Positions 4,210 to 22,128 of a stretch of 34,362 bases of DNA are shown piece by piece. The notes under the pieces were generated by a model. The model did not search any database. It was given only the letters and a program-made list of their open reading frames with translations, and had not been told where the DNA came from. The DNA lies in assembly GCA_964430375.1 (NCBI GenBank), contig CAYSEZ010000002.1, forward strand, positions 3,591-37,952, in the 5' to 3' direction. The position numbers and the translations under genes are program-made. Position 1 is the stretch's first letter. Every line of letters begins with the position of its first letter. The DNA is from an uncultured Mycoplasma sp. (lineage in GTDB: Bacteria; Bacillota_I; Bacilli_A; RF39; UBA660).

Positions 4210-6072
4210 ATGAAACTAAAGGAAAAATTAAAAGAAAATAAAAATTTAAAAACTATTATTTTAATAATTATAGCTATATTAGTAATAACAGGTATAACAT
4301 ATGCTAGTTTTAATATAAATTTTGAGGGTTTAATAAATATAAAAACTGATAGTCCCTCTATTAGTTTAACATATGAAGAACCTCCAACAGCATTAGAACA
4401 AACTAATTCTATATTAACTAGAGAAGAGTATAAAACAAGTAATGATTATTTTGAATTTAAAGTATCTAGTACTAGTAGTATTATTTATAATTTATATTAT
4501 AATATTTATTTAACTGAAAAAAAAACTAATACTTTATCTAAAGATAATTTATATATTTATTTAACTAAAGTAGATAATAATATTGAAGAAGAAGTATTAG
4601 AACCTACTTTAGTAAGTAGTTTAAAAAAACACTCTAATTATGATAATAGTTATATAATAACTTCTGATACTTTTGAGTTTTTAACTGAAACAAATGAAAC
4701 AAAAGAAATAACATATAGATTAAGAATATGGAATGAACCAAATAATTCATCTGATTCAATAACAATTAAAGGGGGTATATACGAATATACAGTAAATGTA
4801 GATACTTACGAACCAATAACTGGTTTATCAGTAATAAAAAGTCAAGTTAAAACAACAAATATAAGTTATAAATATGTAAATGGCGCAAATAAAACAATAG
4901 ATGGAGTAGCATATAACACAGATGATAATGGAGTATTCCTATATGATGGAACAGATGATAATGGAGGAAGTTATCCAATATATTACTATAGAGGTAATGT
5001 TACAAACAATAATGTAATATTTGGAGGATTCTGTTGGAAGATCGTCAGAACAACATCAACTGGAGGAATAAAACTAGTATATAACGGAACACCATCTAAT
5101 GGAGCATGTAGTAATACAGGAACATCTAGTCAAATTAGTACTAGTGCATTCAGTAGTAGTTATACCTCCCCAGCCTATGTAGGATATATGTATGGAACAG
5201 TATATGAATATAGTAGTAAATCACCAACAGGTACAATAATATATGGAAATGATGTAACATATTCTGATGGAACATATACATTAGTAGATACAACAACATC
5301 AACATCATGGAGTAATGACAGAACAACCCTAGCAAATGGATATCACTATACATGCTTTAGTAGTGATACAACATGTACAAGTGTATATTATATAATATAT
5401 TTTGGTAACTTAAGTACTGCATATTATCTAACATTTACAAATGGAGATAATCTAGATAGTGCAAAGACAAAGATGTATACAAATACAACAAATAGTACAA
5501 TCAAAGCAACAATAGATGATTGGTATAAAACTAATCTAACAAGTTATACAAATTATCTAGAAGATACAATATTCTGTAATGATAGGTCAGATGCAACAAG
5601 CACATCTTATAGTGGCCCTTTAGCAAGTAAAGATACAAATAATGGTTATTCATATTTTAAAAGCTATGAAAACACAGAAAATGGAACGCCAAGCCTAGAA
5701 TGTACAAATCAAAATGATAGATTTAGTTTAAGCACAAATAACGGAGGAACAAGTGGATATGGAAATAATGCATTAACATATCCAGTAGGATTACTAACCT
5801 TAGATGAAGCTGAACTAGCAGGTTCACAGTTTGTATCTAGTCATAGTAATTATTATCTATACACAGGACAATATTTCTGGGTTCTTTCCCCTGCTGGGTG
5901 GGGCAGCGATTGGGCTGACGGTGGTCGTGTGTACTCGAGTGGTGTCCTGGACTGGGTCAACGTGGATGGCAGTGGCGGCGTGCGTCCTGCCGTTTCGCTC
6001 CAACTTGGAACAGAGTTTGAAGCAGGAACAGACGGATCTGCGAGCAATCCATATGTTGTGAAAACTTCGTAA
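4210..6072 (+). CDS. Secreted or anchored surface protein with an N-terminal signal/anchor (KTIILIIIAILVITGITYASFN). Its N-domain is shared with ORF 28719..32402. The C-terminal module YFWVLSP...GVRPAVSL looks lectin-like.
   Basis: Long ORF with an SD (agagagtg) and a charged-then-hydrophobic N-terminus. Motifs shared with the 28719 ORF are TGITYA, NYFEF/NYFDF, LVSSLKKH/LVSSLNKH and YRLRIW/YRLRAW. Confidence 0.8.
   Translation: MKLKEKLKENKNLKTIILIIIAILVITGITYASFNINFEGLINIKTDSPSISLTYEEPPTALEQTNSILTREEYKTSNDYFEFKVSSTSSIIYNLYYNIYLTEKKTNTLSKDNLYIYLTKVDNNIEEEVLEPTLVSSLKKHSNYDNSYIITSDTFEFLTETNETKEITYRLRIWNEPNNSSDSITIKGGIYEYTVNVDTYEPITGLSVIKSQVKTTNISYKYVNGANKTIDGVAYNTDDNGVFLYDGTDDNGGSYPIYYYRGNVTNNNVIFGGFCWKIVRTTSTGGIKLVYNGTPSNGACSNTGTSSQISTSAFSSSYTSPAYVGYMYGTVYEYSSKSPTGTIIYGNDVTYSDGTYTLVDTTTSTSWSNDRTTLANGYHYTCFSSDTTCTSVYYIIYFGNLSTAYYLTFTNGDNLDSAKTKMYTNTTNSTIKATIDDWYKTNLTSYTNYLEDTIFCNDRSDATSTSYSGPLASKDTNNGYSYFKSYENTENGTPSLECTNQNDRFSLSTNNGGTSGYGNNALTYPVGLLTLDEAELAGSQFVSSHSNYYLYTGQYFWVLSPAGWGSDWADGGRVYSSGVLDWVNVDGSGGVRPAVSLQLGTEFEAGTDGSASNPYVVKTS
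5896..5985 (+). other. Candidate DGR-type variable region (VR) inside the 3' end of CDS 4210..6072
   Basis: Of 30 codons, 21 are NNY and the other 9 (ggg, tgg, gtg, tcg, ctg) contain no A. Nt 5881-6000 have A=10/120 and about 63% GC. Every A is at codon position 1 or 2. Confidence 0.45.
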
Positions 6073-6095
6073 AATCACAGTACCTGTTCCACACT

Positions 6096-6162
6096 CCGCG
6101 TAAGCGGCCTTCAGAAGTCAGCGGAAACCCTTCCGCTGACCTACCGCAGTCGTCTTCTGAAG
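6096..6162 (+). other. GC-rich nested stem-loop element just downstream of the stop codon of CDS 4210..6072
   Basis: Three stems are visible. ccgc-GTAA-gcgg lies at 6096-6107. The outer stem cttcagaa (6109-6116) pairs with ttctgaag (6155-6162). The inner perfect 9-bp hairpin is gtcagcgga/tccgctgac (6117-6140). Confidence 0.5.
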
Positions 6163-6219
6163 ATGATATTGTCAATCCAAAAGTTTTTTTGGGGTGATGC
6201 AGAAATAAAATTAGAAGGT

Positions 6220-6252
6220 CCTCTTGTTCTTCCTGAATGGAAGAACAAGAGG
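6220..6252 (+). terminator. Perfect 14-bp hairpin (cctcttgttcttcc tgaat ggaagaacaagagg) that may act as a terminator or insulator before sepF. It has no clear U-tract.
   Basis: The inverted repeat can be read directly. It is followed by cgaataaaaattt rather than a T-run. Confidence 0.4.
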
Positions 6253-6270
6253 CGAATAAAAATTTGAAAT

Positions 6271-9145: not shown

Positions 9146-11956
9146 TTAATTTATTGTTATAGTTTTTGTAAATGTTTTTGTTTCATCTTTATATGTAGCA
9201 ATATATGTAATTTGATATTCTCCTTTTTTAGAGGTATCTATAGCATATACTGTTTTATTAGAAGATAGGTCTGTTATTGTTTTGGTAACAGTAATAAAAC
9301 TAGTTACATCAATACCATCTTCTGTAGCGCTAATAGGGTTAGAGTTTTCAGTGTATGTGTCATTTATATTTAAGTTTATATTAGTGGAATCATTAAATGT
9401 AAATTCTATGTTAGAACTGATAGTAAAAGTGCTACCGGAACTTTTATTTGATTCTACTTTTTCATATGATGTTTTAACTACATAAGTACCATATGGATTA
9501 TCAGTAGAGTAGTTATAATAATTATTTGTTGTACTTCCTATTTCTTCTCCATTAAAGTAAATAAAGTATTTAATTTCTCCATTTGTTTCTTTATTTATAT
9601 CAGATGGATATGAAACAGAGTCCCATGTAATTTTTGAAGTACCATTTGAATAGTTAACATTTAGTCCTGTTACATTTTCAATTGTTTTATATTTACTTGA
9701 TTGTTCAGTTGGTTCTGTACCTCTTTTAAATAATTCAGTTATTATCATATTAGATGGAGTATTTTCACTAGGAAGTAGTTCTGTACCTTTTTCTATTTTT
9801 ACTGATACAACACTTGATGGTTTTTTAAATGTTGTTCCATCATTATCAAATACTGCTTTAGCAAGTGCACGATATAATTTATTTCTATGAGTAACCATTT
9901 TTGATTGTACTATGTATTGACCTTCGACATTTTCGTTATAACCGGTCCACATAGCCATTGATATATTTGAAGTATATCCGGCGATCCAACCATCTGGAGC
10001 GGCACTACTAGGGTATTTATAAAGTTTTCGTGTTGCTTCATCATAGTTAGTTGAACCAGTTTTAAGTGCAACTTGATCTTTAACTGCACTATTAACTCCG
10101 GTAGATATAGCTACTTCTTTAAGGATATCTGTTATCATGTATGCTGTAGAATCACTCATTGCTTTTACTTTTTCACTTTCAAAGTCATCAATTACTTCGT
10201 TAGTTTCTCTTAATACTATTTTGTTAACTGCATATGGTTCATAGTAATAACCACCGTTTGAAAATGCTGCATAAGCTCCGGCTAACTCTAGAGGGGAAGC
10301 GCCATTAAATGCTCCAAGAGAGTGAGCTTCATGGATATAAGTACTATTTTCACTTTCATATTCTGGCTCTATTCCTAAAGTTGTTACAAATTTATTAATT
10401 TGTGAATTTTCTAATTCTTGGAATGCTTTAACTGCAGGGACATTTCTAGAATCTGCTAGTGAATATCTTAATGTGATTTCTCCTTTATATGCTAAGTCAT
10501 AATTTACTATTTTTTCTGTACTACCAGTATAATAGTGAGGCTCATCATCAAATATATGACCGGTAGACCAATTTAAATATTCAATACCTGGTCCATAATC
10601 AAATAATGGTTTTGCAGTAGATCCTATTTGTCTTTTTATATCAGTTGCATAACTAAAAATACGTTCTCCAGTTCTATTTCTTGCTCCAGCGATTGCTATT
10701 ATTTTACCAGTATTACTTTCTATGGCAACTGCACCAGCTTCAATTGTTTTATTTGGCCATGTATATGTTTCTCCATCAAATACTTTTCTTACTGCAAGTT
10801 GTTTTTCTGAATCCATATTTGTATATATAATCATTGGAGTAACGTATGGATCAAGACCAGTTTTTTCTTGTATTTCTTTTAATACATAATCTATATAATC
10901 TTGATATTCATTTTGTGATTTGTTAGAATTACTACTAATTAAATCTTCAATTGGAATAGAAAGTACTATATCTTTTTCTTCTTCAGTTATATATCCGTGT
11001 TTAACCATTAAAGATAATACTGTTTCTTGTCTTTCTCTAGTGTTTTCTGGATATACAGTAGGATCATAACTAGTAGGAGCTTGGAATAGTCCAGCGATAA
11101 TTGAGGCTTCAGCAAGATTTATTTCACTAGTACTTTTACCAAAATAACTTTGACATGCTTGTTCTACACCATAAGAGTAATTACCAAGATATGGAACATT
11201 TACATAAAATTCTAATATTTCTTGTTTAGTAAATGCTTTTTCTATTTTAAATATTGATAAATAAATATCAGTAAATTTTCTTATAATTCCTTCAATACCA
11301 GAAGCTTCAGTAGAAGTAAAATTATTTTTAGCTACTTGCATTGTAATAGTAGAACCTCCGCCAGCATCAGAAGAACCAAGTACTTGTCCTAAAACTGCTT
11401 TAAAGAATCGTGGAGCGTCTAATCCATTATGTTGAAAATATCTAGAATCTTCAGTTGCTACAATTGCATTAACTAATACTTCAGGCATATCATTATAAGT
11501 TATTTTTTCACGTTTTTCACTACCTAAAGTTGCTACTAATTTATTACTATTATCATATACAAGAGAAGTTTCTCTTCGATCAAGTTTTTCAACATCAAAT
11601 TCTGGTGATGCTATTACTATATATATAAAGAAAGCAGTAAAAGCTAAGATAGCAAGTATTCCCATTATAAGAACAAATATAAGTAAGCTTTTAATTATTT
11701 TTCTTTTAGGACTGTTTTTAGGATTATTATCAAGTACTTTAGTACATAATATTATTAATATAAAAACAAATGTTCCTAGAAATGCAATCAAACTACCAAA
11801 GAATAAATAACATAGTATAAATACTAAAATAGTCATTATACTTAAAAATATTAAATATCTTTTTGATAATTTTTTAACTTTACTTTTAATTTCTTCTTTA
11901 TTAATTTTTCTTTTTTTAGCCTTTATTTTATCTTTTTTAACTTCTTTTTTATTCAT
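9146..11956 (-). CDS. ponA: Class A penicillin-binding protein (bifunctional glycosyltransferase/transpeptidase) with a C-terminal extension of about 200 aa
   Basis: GT51 motifs EDSRYFQHNGLD and GGSTITMQ. Transpeptidase motifs STAKP, SRN and KTGST. It overlaps recU as in the Bacillus recU-ponA operon. Confidence 0.9.
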   Translation of the reverse strand: MNKKEVKKDKIKAKKRKINKEEIKSKVKKLSKRYLIFLSIMTILVFILCYLFFGSLIAFLGTFVFILIILCTKVLDNNPKNSPKRKIIKSLLIFVLIMGILAILAFTAFFIYIVIASPEFDVEKLDRRETSLVYDNSNKLVATLGSEKREKITYNDMPEVLVNAIVATEDSRYFQHNGLDAPRFFKAVLGQVLGSSDAGGGSTITMQVAKNNFTSTEASGIEGIIRKFTDIYLSIFKIEKAFTKQEILEFYVNVPYLGNYSYGVEQACQSYFGKSTSEINLAEASIIAGLFQAPTSYDPTVYPENTRERQETVLSLMVKHGYITEEEKDIVLSIPIEDLISSNSNKSQNEYQDYIDYVLKEIQEKTGLDPYVTPMIIYTNMDSEKQLAVRKVFDGETYTWPNKTIEAGAVAIESNTGKIIAIAGARNRTGERIFSYATDIKRQIGSTAKPLFDYGPGIEYLNWSTGHIFDDEPHYYTGSTEKIVNYDLAYKGEITLRYSLADSRNVPAVKAFQELENSQINKFVTTLGIEPEYESENSTYIHEAHSLGAFNGASPLELAGAYAAFSNGGYYYEPYAVNKIVLRETNEVIDDFESEKVKAMSDSTAYMITDILKEVAISTGVNSAVKDQVALKTGSTNYDEATRKLYKYPSSAAPDGWIAGYTSNISMAMWTGYNENVEGQYIVQSKMVTHRNKLYRALAKAVFDNDGTTFKKPSSVVSVKIEKGTELLPSENTPSNMIITELFKRGTEPTEQSSKYKTIENVTGLNVNYSNGTSKITWDSVSYPSDINKETNGEIKYFIYFNGEEIGSTTNNYYNYSTDNPYGTYVVKTSYEKVESNKSSGSTFTISSNIEFTFNDSTNINLNINDTYTENSNPISATEDGIDVTSFITVTKTITDLSSNKTVYAIDTSKKGEYQITYIATYKDETKTFTKTITIN

Positions 11957-21234: not shown

Positions 21235-21271
21235 TATGTATAATATAAATATTTTTGGAAATTTTTGGATA

Positions 21272-21300
21272 TAGACAAAATCTTAAAAATATGGTATTAT
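21272..21300 (+). promoter_or_regulatory. Promoter of antisense sRNA copy 1
   Basis: TAGACA, a 17-nt spacer, then TGgTATTAT (extended -10). The same box recurs at 21616-21644 and 21978-22005. Confidence 0.6.
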
Positions 21301-21306
21301 GTATAC

Positions 21307-21410
21307 AGATGAGAGATATCTCATATAATAAAAAAGGAACACTTAGTATTACAGTGTTAAGTGTTACCAATAAATGGGGTGTCACCTAACATAAGTTAGG
21401 TGACTTTTAA
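21307..21410 (+). ncRNA. Candidate type I antitoxin sRNA 1 (about 100 nt), convergent with and overlapping the 3' end of the peptide-1 mRNA
   Basis: It starts about 7 nt after the -10 box. It has a hairpin atgaga-gata-tctcat and a hairpin aacactta...taagtgtt. The terminator is gtcacctaac-ataa-gttaggtgac followed by TTTT (21381-21408). Confidence 0.55.
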
Positions 21411-21419
21411 AAATAAATT

Positions 21420-21485
21420 TTATATTATAATTAAAAGAATGATAATTACTAATAAAATTAAGATTAAAAAATCTTTTTTACCCAT
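21420..21485 (-). CDS. 21-aa hydrophobic peptide MGKKDFLILILLVIIILLIII, a candidate type I toxin
   Basis: ATG with SD GAGGTGG at a 5-nt spacing. It has a single predicted TM helix and its own promoter and terminators. Confidence 0.55.
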   Translation of the reverse strand: MGKKDFLILILLVIIILLIII

Positions 21486-21493
21486 AACTACCA

Positions 21494-21518
21494 CCTCACT
21501 TTCTATAAAAAAGTAAGG
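21494..21518 (-). promoter_or_regulatory. SD-sequestering hairpin in the 5' UTR of the peptide-1 mRNA
   Basis: On the minus-strand RNA, CCUUACUUU pairs with AAAGUGAGG (9 bp, one G-U). The 3' arm contains the SD. The same structure occurs in copy 2 (about 21854-21878). Confidence 0.5.
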
Positions 21519-21549
21519 TAACACCTAACTACCAAGTGTTCGTAAACTA

Positions 21550-21578
21550 ATTGTACCAAATATAACTACCTAATACAA
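21550..21578 (-). promoter_or_regulatory. Promoter of the peptide-1 (toxin) mRNA
   Basis: The minus strand reads TTGTAT, a 17-nt spacer, then TGgTACAAT. An identical box for copy 2 lies at 21912-21940. Confidence 0.55.
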
Positions 21579-21650
21579 GTGAAATTATCGAAAAATAATT
21601 GGTAATTTTTGGATATAGACAAAATCTTAAAAATATGTTATTATGTATAC

Positions 21651-21762
21651 AGGTGAGAGATATCTCATATAATAAAAAAGGAACACTTGATATTAGCATG
21701 TTAAGTGTTACCTATAAATGGTTTCACCTAATTCAAAACTAATTTTGAGTTAGGTATTTTTC
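21651..21762 (+). ncRNA. Candidate type I antitoxin sRNA 2
   Basis: Promoter at 21616-21644 and the same two 5' hairpins as sRNA 1. The terminator is a 13-bp stem (21726-21755) followed by a T-run, and it abuts the stop codon of peptide 2. Confidence 0.55.
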
Positions 21763-21764
21763 TT

Positions 21765-21848
21765 TTATATCAATACTATTGTTAGTATAAATAGCAAAAA
21801 GAAGATAATGATAAATAAAGCAAAAATTAATAAATTTTTTCTATTCAC
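21765..21848 (-). CDS. 27-aa hydrophobic peptide (GTG start) MNRKNLLIFALFIIIFFLLFILTIVLI, a candidate type I toxin
   Basis: The SD GAGGTGG and spacing match copy 1. It has a single TM helix and a conserved 5' UTR and promoter. Confidence 0.5.
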   Translation of the reverse strand: MNRKNLLIFALFIIIFFLLFILTIVLI

Positions 21849-22042
21849 ACTACCACCTCACTTTCTATAAAAAAGTAAGGCAACACCTAACTACCAAGTG
21901 TTCGTAAACTAATTGTACCAAATATAACTACCTAATACAAGTGAAATTATCGAAAAATAATTGGTAATTTTTGGATATAGACAAAATCTTAAAATATGTT
22001 ATTATGTGTACAGATGAGAGATATCTCATATAATAAAAAAGG
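21849..22042. repeat. Conserved divergent-promoter block, copy C
   Basis: See 21489..21721. The rightward promoter has a 16-nt spacer because one A is deleted. Confidence 0.8.
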
Positions 22043-22128
22043 ATAGTGTATATTATTCTTAAAAGATAGAATATAATAATATTTAAAATAATAATACAGG
22101 TTTTTAGATCTGTATTATTATTTTAAAT
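22012..22128 (+). ncRNA. Orphan third sRNA copy. It keeps the promoter and first hairpin, but the body has diverged and no peptide gene lies opposite.
   Basis: Promoter at 21978-22005 and the hairpin atgaga-gata-tctcat. It ends at a perfect 15-bp AT-rich hairpin (22085-22124). Confidence 0.4.

Follow-up and report, generated by a model that had tools for sequence, protein, structure and literature searches.

Diversity-generating retroelements (DGRs) have been described in several settings that bear on the gene studied here, which occupies nt 4210–6072 of a 34,362-nt stretch of DNA (the window) from an uncultured Mycoplasma sp. (assembly GCA_964430375.1, contig CAYSEZ010000002.1). The DGR of Treponema denticola (TvpA, up to seven non-adjacent targets) and other remote-target DGRs (Wu et al. 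2018, PMC5758913) are chromosomal and not phage-borne, as is this locus. In DGRs of the T. denticola type, one cassette can serve paralogous targets far from its reverse transcriptase (RT), and the window gene fits this class of non-adjacent target. A further likeness is that the variable region (VR) lies at the 3′ end of its gene, which encodes a surface or secreted protein whose variable domain is lectin-like. Unlike in T. denticola, the accessory gene of the relatives is Avd rather than HRDC and their gene order is target, template repeat (TR), avd, RT; the variable domain is DUF6273-like rather than of the formylglycine-generating enzyme (FGE)-sulfatase type, and the cognate TR of the window gene is not seen.

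The DGR of Bordetella phage BPP-1, with its VR in mtd, its initiation of mutagenic homology (IMH) segment and its downstream hairpin or cruciform (Guo et al. 2011, PMC3240598), shares adenine-specific rewriting from TR to VR and a GC-rich VR 3′ end. Its GC-rich stem of 7–10 bp with a 4-nt loop downstream of the VR, variable in the stem and conserved in the loop, has a counterpart here of 10 bp with the loop ACCC. The described hairpins lie 4–34 bp from the VR and carry a GRNA loop. Here a further 27 codons, the stop codon and a conserved 12-nt box separate the VR end from the hairpin, a distance of ~115–130 nt, and the host is a bacterial chromosome and not a phage. In gut phages, DUF6273 (PF19789) proteins serve as DGR targets, including tentaclins and targets of Faecalibacterium prophages (PMC10743442, PMC11792537). 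The ...YW.xSP...G...GVRP..SL block of members of the window protein's family aligns to positions 122–171 of the DUF6273 profile, and this block is the VR; the best structural neighbours of the window protein are likewise DUF6273 proteins. Unlike the phage targets, the window protein falls under every Pfam threshold, and its family is cellular, with an N-terminal signal, a large extra conserved body and no relative in IMG/VR.

An earlier note, made from the letters of the window alone, had proposed that the gene is a DGR target with a VR at its 3′ end. The cassettes of relatives, their adenine-specific TR/VR mismatches and a remote target in one relative support that proposal. Because the cassettes of relatives adjoin homologous genes and show adenine-specific TR/VR mismatches, we consider it very likely, judging from sequence comparison, that nt 5878–5988 are the VR of a DGR target gene belonging to a chromosomal DGR lineage of uncultured low-GC gut Bacilli. 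We infer that the source genome carries, or recently carried, a cassette with the exact template.

Composition of the variable block

The earlier note had drawn attention to an adenine-poor, GC-rich block starting at about nt 5884, and a recount together with a scan of all 117-nt windows confirms it. Nucleotides 5884–6000 hold 10 A, 31 T, 29 C and 47 G (65% GC), against 26.9% GC in the remaining gene (4210–5880) and 24.3% for the window overall. For nt 5881–6000 the note's counts of A and C were right, but its T=34 and G=47 were each one off (recount: A=10, T=33, C=29, G=48). The block is the top composition outlier among all 117-nt windows (mean GC 0.243, sd 0.066) and the place where their adenine content reaches its minimum; windows with a GC fraction of at least 0.5 start exclusively within 5839–6086. 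Beyond the VR, GC content is still raised, at 43% in the gene tail and 46% in the downstream element.

The anomaly extends to codon usage. None of the 39 codons of the block ends in A, compared with 0.47 of the 558 upstream codons (P ~2e-11), and G or C at third codon positions (GC3) is found in 21 of 36 cases, where the codon preferences of the gene itself would give 2.3 for an identical amino-acid content. The codon table also bears out the note's statement that 21 of the 30 codons in 5896–5985 have the form NNY and that all 10 adenines of the block sit at position 1 or 2 of such codons. The NNY share itself (0.74 in the block vs 0.50 upstream) is weak evidence taken alone. The anomaly is real and is tied to strand and codon position.

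Chance, or selection for a peptide rich in Gly, Trp, Ser, Asp and Val, might give GC-rich codons without any retroelement, and the segment is indeed rich in Gly, Trp, Val and Asp, with codons that are G-rich at positions 1 and 2. The synonymous third positions, however, are shifted as strongly as described above, so amino-acid content does not explain the block. This synonymous-site test refutes the explanation, to which we attach a negligible probability.

Cassettes and template–variable pairs in relatives

Complete cassettes of TR, Avd and RT lie directly after the target gene in four relatives, and a fifth contig stops just after the TR (Table 1; contigs of relatives carry L numbers, and their repeats take the same number). 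The Avd proteins match NF033474 and PF22296 over their full length, under the curated cut-offs.

Table 1. Features of the window (positions in the 34,362-nt stretch) and DGR loci of relatives.
Feature or locus	Position	Strand	Basis or content	TR/VR comparison
Target gene, 620 aa	4210..6072	+	open reading frame and translation	
Predicted VR, 37 codons, W557 to P593	5878..5988	+	register with verified TR/VR pairs of relatives	
IMH-like distal segment, gcc gtt tcg ctc caa	5989..6003	+	codon alignments	
Conserved box TGTTCCACACTC, 12 nt	6085..6096	+	13 nt past stop	
Nested hairpin	6109..6162	+	DNA folding and covariation	
Terminator-like hairpin (cctcttgttcttcc tgaa tggaagaacaagagg), then cgaataaaaattt	6220..6252	+	end of homology with L073 spacer	
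L059/L060/L061 (Hadza metagenome-assembled genome, 430-kb contig)			target, box and hairpin, TR, Avd, RT, Rpn-type nuclease	17/17 mismatches at TR adenines over the 111-nt TR
L073 (GCA_964460565.1, 24% GC)			target 3′ end, box and hairpin, terminator, TR, Avd, RT	18/19 mismatches at TR adenines, P=9e-13
L057			target, element, TR, bAvd, RT (SIGAMCSQ and YMDD motifs; IGxxxSQ)	
L055			one gene with two VRs, TR 85 nt past stop; contig ends before any RT	15/17 and 16/19 mismatches at TR adenines
L062/L069			element, TR, Avd, RT	

The TR/VR pairs of these relatives set the register of the predicted VR. From tgg to cgt-cct it spans 111 nt, equal to the corresponding spans in L059, L062 and L073. The relatives' TRs hold 28–37 adenines per 111–126 nt, mixed with fixed codons; derivation from AAY is not required for every one of the 21 NNY codons counted in the earlier note. 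TR/VR identity in the relatives stops at the cgt-cct (Arg-Pro) codons. The gccgtttcgctcc beyond is kept in VRs and replaced in TRs, which end in tattttcacttt or gcattttcgatt. The IMH-like segment of the window lies just beyond this boundary, with nucleotides conserved among VRs; its TR counterparts differ, reading tat ttt cac ttt or gca ttt tcg att. The distinction between IMH and IMH* has been described (PMC5758913), and the alignments suggest that nt 5989–6003 would act as the IMH and the TR version as IMH*. The window has both the GC-rich VR 3′ end and the conserved gccgtttcgctcc. Of the adenine-free, IMH-like run named in the earlier note, only part falls inside the templated stretch, the remaining gccgtttcgctcc lying outside it.

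Two comparisons among relatives show where VRs change. Between VR57 and VR03 there are 25 differences in 126 nt, 22 of them at TR adenines, whereas the 1.5-kb region of L057 and L003 that contains these VRs (the 3′ gene half, spacer and start of the TR) is 97% identical overall. The closest structural analogue of the window is L002, where a GC-rich VR is followed by box and hairpin and the spacer breaks off after its first ~105 nt, with neither TR nor RT within 10 kb. Its VR matches TR62, on a separate metagenome contig: 22 of the 26 mismatches are at TR adenines (P=6e-12), and the other four are C/T changes at third positions. Remote DGR targets of this kind are established (PMC5758913).

The nearest cassette is that of L073, whose partial target is 65% identical to window residues 388–620 and ends in almost the same tail (...GVRPAVSLQLGTEFEEGTDGTVNNPYVVKTS, then stop). 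At the DNA level, window 5370–6149 is 72% identical to L073 9–813, and window 6198–6269 is 84% identical to L073 901–973, part of the spacer that separates the stop codon of the target from the TR. The window thus retains, up to and including the terminator hairpin, the complete transcription unit that the target forms in such a cassette. In the same 111-nt register, 20 of the 28 TR73 adenines (71%) are changed in the window VR, compared with 20 of 83 positions elsewhere in TR73 (24%; P=1e-5). By sequence, TR73 looks like a diverged cousin of the missing template.

If the window gene is a DGR target, a cassette elsewhere in the genome, or there until recently, would supply the TR, a small Avd and a DGR-type RT. 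The cDNA would be made from template RNA with misincorporation opposite template adenines, and the mutated cDNA would overwrite the homologous stretch at the 3′ end of gene 4210–6072. Rewriting would affect some 20 codons and leave the fixed scaffold codons as they are; the rewritten codons lie in the C-terminal DUF6273-like domain of a secreted protein, which is a putative C-type-lectin-like binding domain. The block would keep the G/C/T-rich fixed bases of the template and lose most of its adenines, which would explain a 65% GC, adenine-poor block in a 24% GC genome. The window would then be the recipient half alone: VR, IMH-like 3′ end, conserved box and hairpin, and the gene's terminator.

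The relatives' cassettes show several further features. TR57 (L057 12084–12200), which lies beside the RT, is not the template of the adjacent VR (11639–11751), from which it is set apart by ~21 non-adenine differences common to VR57 and VR03; a second TR copy probably exists for L057. The L062 cassette is 96% identical to that of L059, and the first 136–140 aa of the RT are 100% identical, yet TR62 and TR69 differ from TR59 at 21 and 31 positions, nearly all non-adenine (TR regions L059 9249–9359, L062 222–332 and L069 210–320). These figures suggest that the TR scaffold turns over faster than the remaining cassette. RTs of this DGR clade (the L059 RT, 10001–11464, and many other matches) are ~490 aa long and have a C-terminal extension with a weak match to MutS domain I (PF01624, residues 360–402, E=2e-4, 21.9 bits vs a cut-off of 20.6); the L057 RT, a 378-codon open frame, is without this extension. 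A gene for a putative transposase of the PDDEXK_2/Rpn family lies downstream of the RT (L059 11595–12635, L060 4477–5505, L057 14842–15255), immediately after it in L059 and L060 and two genes later in L057. The cassette site differs by species, with mutS preceding it in L057 and lepA-hemN in L059, and the transposase gene downstream of the RT hints that the cassette is mobile as a unit.

Protein family, hypervariability and fold

The target protein has more than 2,300 homologues at E≤0.001. The genome matches are metagenome-assembled genomes (MAGs) labelled as uncultured gut 'Bacilli', 'Mycoplasma sp.' and Erysipelotrichaceae; their hosts are humans (Hadza), rabbits and ruminants, and a single MAG has at least nine paralogues. 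The protein begins with a signal or anchor (MKLKEKLKENKNLKTIILIIIAILVITGITYA|SF, judged by eye only), followed by a variable N-terminal region, a conserved Cys-containing body (residues ~230–556) and a C-terminal DUF6273-like domain that carries the VR. In a 20-member alignment, mean column identity is 0.78 in the body (230–556), 0.37 over residues 562–589 and 0.91 in GVRPxxSL, and hypervariability across the family is confined to the VR block. The block is GC-rich and adenine-poor in the window, L002/L006, L003, L007–L009, L011, L033, L035 and L045; in L004, L014, L027, L032, L044, L048 and L005 it is ordinary and AT-rich, and in L001 it appears half-decayed. A protein search with the C-terminal 85 aa alone returned one irrelevant match.

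A plain mosaic could also give a GC-rich 3′ segment, which would have come from another organism by horizontal transfer or from a paralogue by gene conversion, without retroelement shaping in this lineage. Conversion of 3′ modules is real in the family: L003 and L058 share a 1.5-kb segment at 99.3% identity, and in the window the raised GC runs on into the tail and the downstream element. But conversion would move such a module without explaining its composition, and the adenine depletion is specific to strand and codon position. The block is moreover different in every relative between conserved flanks, and the differences follow TR adenines. A foreign source also finds no support: relatives of the target protein were not found in IMG/VR viral contigs, blastn of window 5800–6250 against phage records gave no match, and all relatives found are low-GC. 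A phage origin of the gene was rejected on these grounds, and a mosaic without retroelement shaping is, in our estimate, highly improbable.

The L003 and L058 paralogues belong to one genome (same sample, same coverage), and their shared segment comprises the 3′ gene half with its VR, then the spacer and the TR start; the sequences point to gene conversion. In L058 (12141–12340) the reading frame of the TR copy continues as an AT-rich gene tail (…GVRPVIFLKSGISYTSGNETITSPYVIS, then stop), and L003 (5978–6085) holds a truncated TR relic, cut after 71 nt. The TR possibly originated by duplication of a gene 3′ end.

Of 61 family members, 8 match PF19789, and in each of them the match covers the VR block at the profile positions named above. 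AlphaFold2 models of the window protein have a mean predicted local distance difference test score of 94 for residues 205–620 and 88 for residues 410–620. The best match of residues 205–620 in the PDB is 9qa6, an IgA peptidase of T. ramosa (E=3.7e-3, probability 0.98), whose N-terminal domain is annotated as DUF6273 (PMC12402451); residues 410–620 reach the same entry at E=0.11. In BFVD, 8 of the top 18 neighbours are gut-phage DUF6273 proteins, none of them below E=0.08. DGR targets with a DUF6273 domain of C-lectin-like fold have been published (PMC10743442), and membership of the window protein in DUF6273 is plausible by transitivity.

Some paralogues (L002 6528–8678, L058 7893–9989, L003 9081–9479) have type IV pilus/Com-type genes (T2SSF, prepilin peptidase A24) immediately before them or a gene for an N_methyl pilin-like protein nearby. 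These neighbours may tie the family to a pilus-type secretion or display apparatus.

A conserved element after the stop codon

The box and nested hairpin that follow the gene (Table 1) recur in relatives. The inner stem of the hairpin has 10 bp (6117–6126 with 6131–6140) around the loop ACCC (6127–6130), and the outer stem has 9 bp, cttcagaag (6109–6117) pairing with cttctgaag (6154–6162). Its DNA fold energy is -22.5 kcal/mol (z=-5.8), and none of 200 shuffles was as good. Among six distinct copies, 96.7% of cells are paired, compensatory changes occur at 6 of 10 pairs and the loop never varies. The box is near-identical in the window, L002/L006, L045, L059 and L062/L067/L069 and has a diverged form in L003/L057/L058 and L073.

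The whole element repeats after genes with GC-rich VRs, in L002/L006, L003/L057/L058, L045, L059, L062/L067/L069 and, imperfectly, L073; it is missing after several other genes, for example L007, L009, L011 and L013. A metagenome scan for box plus hairpin recovered three true extra copies, all of the L002/L059 lineage, and eight other matches were rejected as chance. Rfam contains no family that matches the element. The hairpin at 6220–6252 is probably the terminator of the target gene.

Box and hairpin probably aid recognition of the target gene in trans by the cassette. More tentatively, and short of an even chance in our judgement, the pair may serve as a recognition signal peculiar to the lineage, through which a single chromosomal DGR cassette could write into dispersed paralogues of the family in uncultured gut Bacilli. 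Gene conversion may spread the recipient module as a whole (VR, tail, box and hairpin, terminator) between paralogues, and genes such as 4210–6072 would be 'licensed' remote targets that never owned a cassette.

Missing cassette and weighing of the evidence

Several results weigh against a DGR VR in this gene. The first is the lack of a cassette. A TR inside the window was rejected after a repeat search and blastn with the VR as query (word size 7), neither of which found one, and after blastn with the TRs of L055, L057, L058, L059 and L073, to which the VR itself was the sole match. An RT or Avd inside the window was likewise rejected: none was found by Pfam among the 29 other open reading frames (ORFs; all ≥80 aa), by a motif regular expression, or by tblastn with the RT and Avd of L057 and L059. 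A degenerate pattern of the cognate TR, with N at positions 1 and 2 of the NNY codons, matched neither viral contigs nor JGI metagenomes (0 hits each). Nor is TR73 the template of the window gene, since 20 of the mismatches fall at non-adenine positions.

The protein and the element add to these points. The protein database holds no close strain variants of the target protein, the best non-self match being 58% identical. Neither Pfam nor NCBIfam matches the target protein (PF19789 none at E≤1, nor with a 416-aa fragment), and Foldseek matches of both models to C-type lectins are not significant (E ~4–5). The C-type-lectin scaffold of the earlier note thus has only indirect support, through DUF6273 in relatives and neighbours. 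The distance of the hairpin from the VR and its ACCC loop fall outside the published range and motif (PMC3240598). Finally, VR59 (L059 8842–8952; L060 1712–1822) is identical in three samples from different studies, and turnover in this DGR clade may be slow; the L059/L060/L061 loci are 99.95–100% identical, and these consensus assemblies are without diversification at that time scale.

The earlier note had itself placed the TR, avd and RT outside the window, and Pfam, tblastn and blastn with the relatives' TRs bear this out. A search for a TR-like repeat, which it had proposed for the complete genome or bin, was run here on the window, viral contigs and JGI metagenomes and yielded no cognate TR; differences from the heterologous TR73 are enriched at its adenines.

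The same lack of a cassette could mean that the block is a fossil VR, written by a DGR whose TR, avd and RT have since been lost, for example by a deletion just past the terminator, and no longer diversifying. Homology with the L073 cassette stops right after the terminator (~6269), where the sepF promoter and sepF follow with no trace of a TR promoter, TR, avd or RT. The clean end of homology at the terminator, together with the decayed blocks of some paralogues (the AT-rich and half-decayed ones listed above), keeps the fossil reading alive, and L003 offers a case in which just the truncated TR relic is left. On the other side, the window block shows no decay toward the 24% GC background, as its third positions attest, and the 10-bp hairpin is perfect. 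The equally truncated layout of L002 goes with a VR that matches a remote TR, and ~3.6 kb of the source contig (37,952 bp) lie outside the window. We regard loss of the cassette with an end to diversification as unlikely. Because the block has not drifted to the AT-rich background and the hairpin is perfect, the sequences argue for current or very recent activity of the VR in a non-adjacent DGR target.

Genomic neighbourhood and other features

The genes of the window run in the order RNase HII, CvpA, YhcG-type nuclease, thioredoxin, target gene, SepF, DivIVA, LytR, penicillin-binding proteins, RecU, LepA and others. The earlier note called the location between trxA and sepF unusual, but the trx-gene-sepF-divIVA order is found again in the related MAG contig L003, so the position is conserved. 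L003 is close in other genes of the region too (CvpA 84% and RNase HII 82% identical to those of the window). L005 was rejected as a trx-sepF orthologue, being a YqeY-linked paralogue with an AT-rich block.

The LepA of the window is 92% identical to that of L059. L059 and the window organism share only LepA-HemN at that site, and the window is without a cassette there, which is weak evidence either way. The 478-aa gene after LepA-HemN in L059 was rejected as the TPR gene of the window.

Two repeats lie apart from the target gene. Window 21240–22050 contains a ~350-nt unit in ~2.3 intergenic copies, with short minus-strand ORFs for very hydrophobic peptides at 21420–21524 (...MGKKDFLILILLVIIILLIII; gaggtgg before it by eye) and 21765–21848 (MNRKNLLIFALFIIIFFLLFILTIVLI). 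These copies look like tandem modules resembling type I toxin-antitoxin systems. An 82-nt direct repeat (3–84 and 394–475, 95% identical, 391 nt apart) sits at the end of an ORF (121–492) for a C-terminal fragment of a cation ATPase.

Significance

The locus is modestly new in its unannotated target family, its distant box and ACCC hairpin, and the evidence for movement of recipient modules between paralogues by gene conversion. With it, a large unannotated family of more than 2,300 secreted proteins of low-GC gut Bacilli joins the catalogue of DGR targets. The gene also illustrates that a DGR target is recognisable by composition alone, even with its cassette on another contig; DGR finders centred on the cassette miss such targets in fragmented MAGs. 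The box and hairpin are a testable candidate for remote-target recognition, farther from the VR and with another loop than in elements of the BPP-1 type. For the biology of the organism, the finding points to a hypervariable, ligand-binding surface protein.

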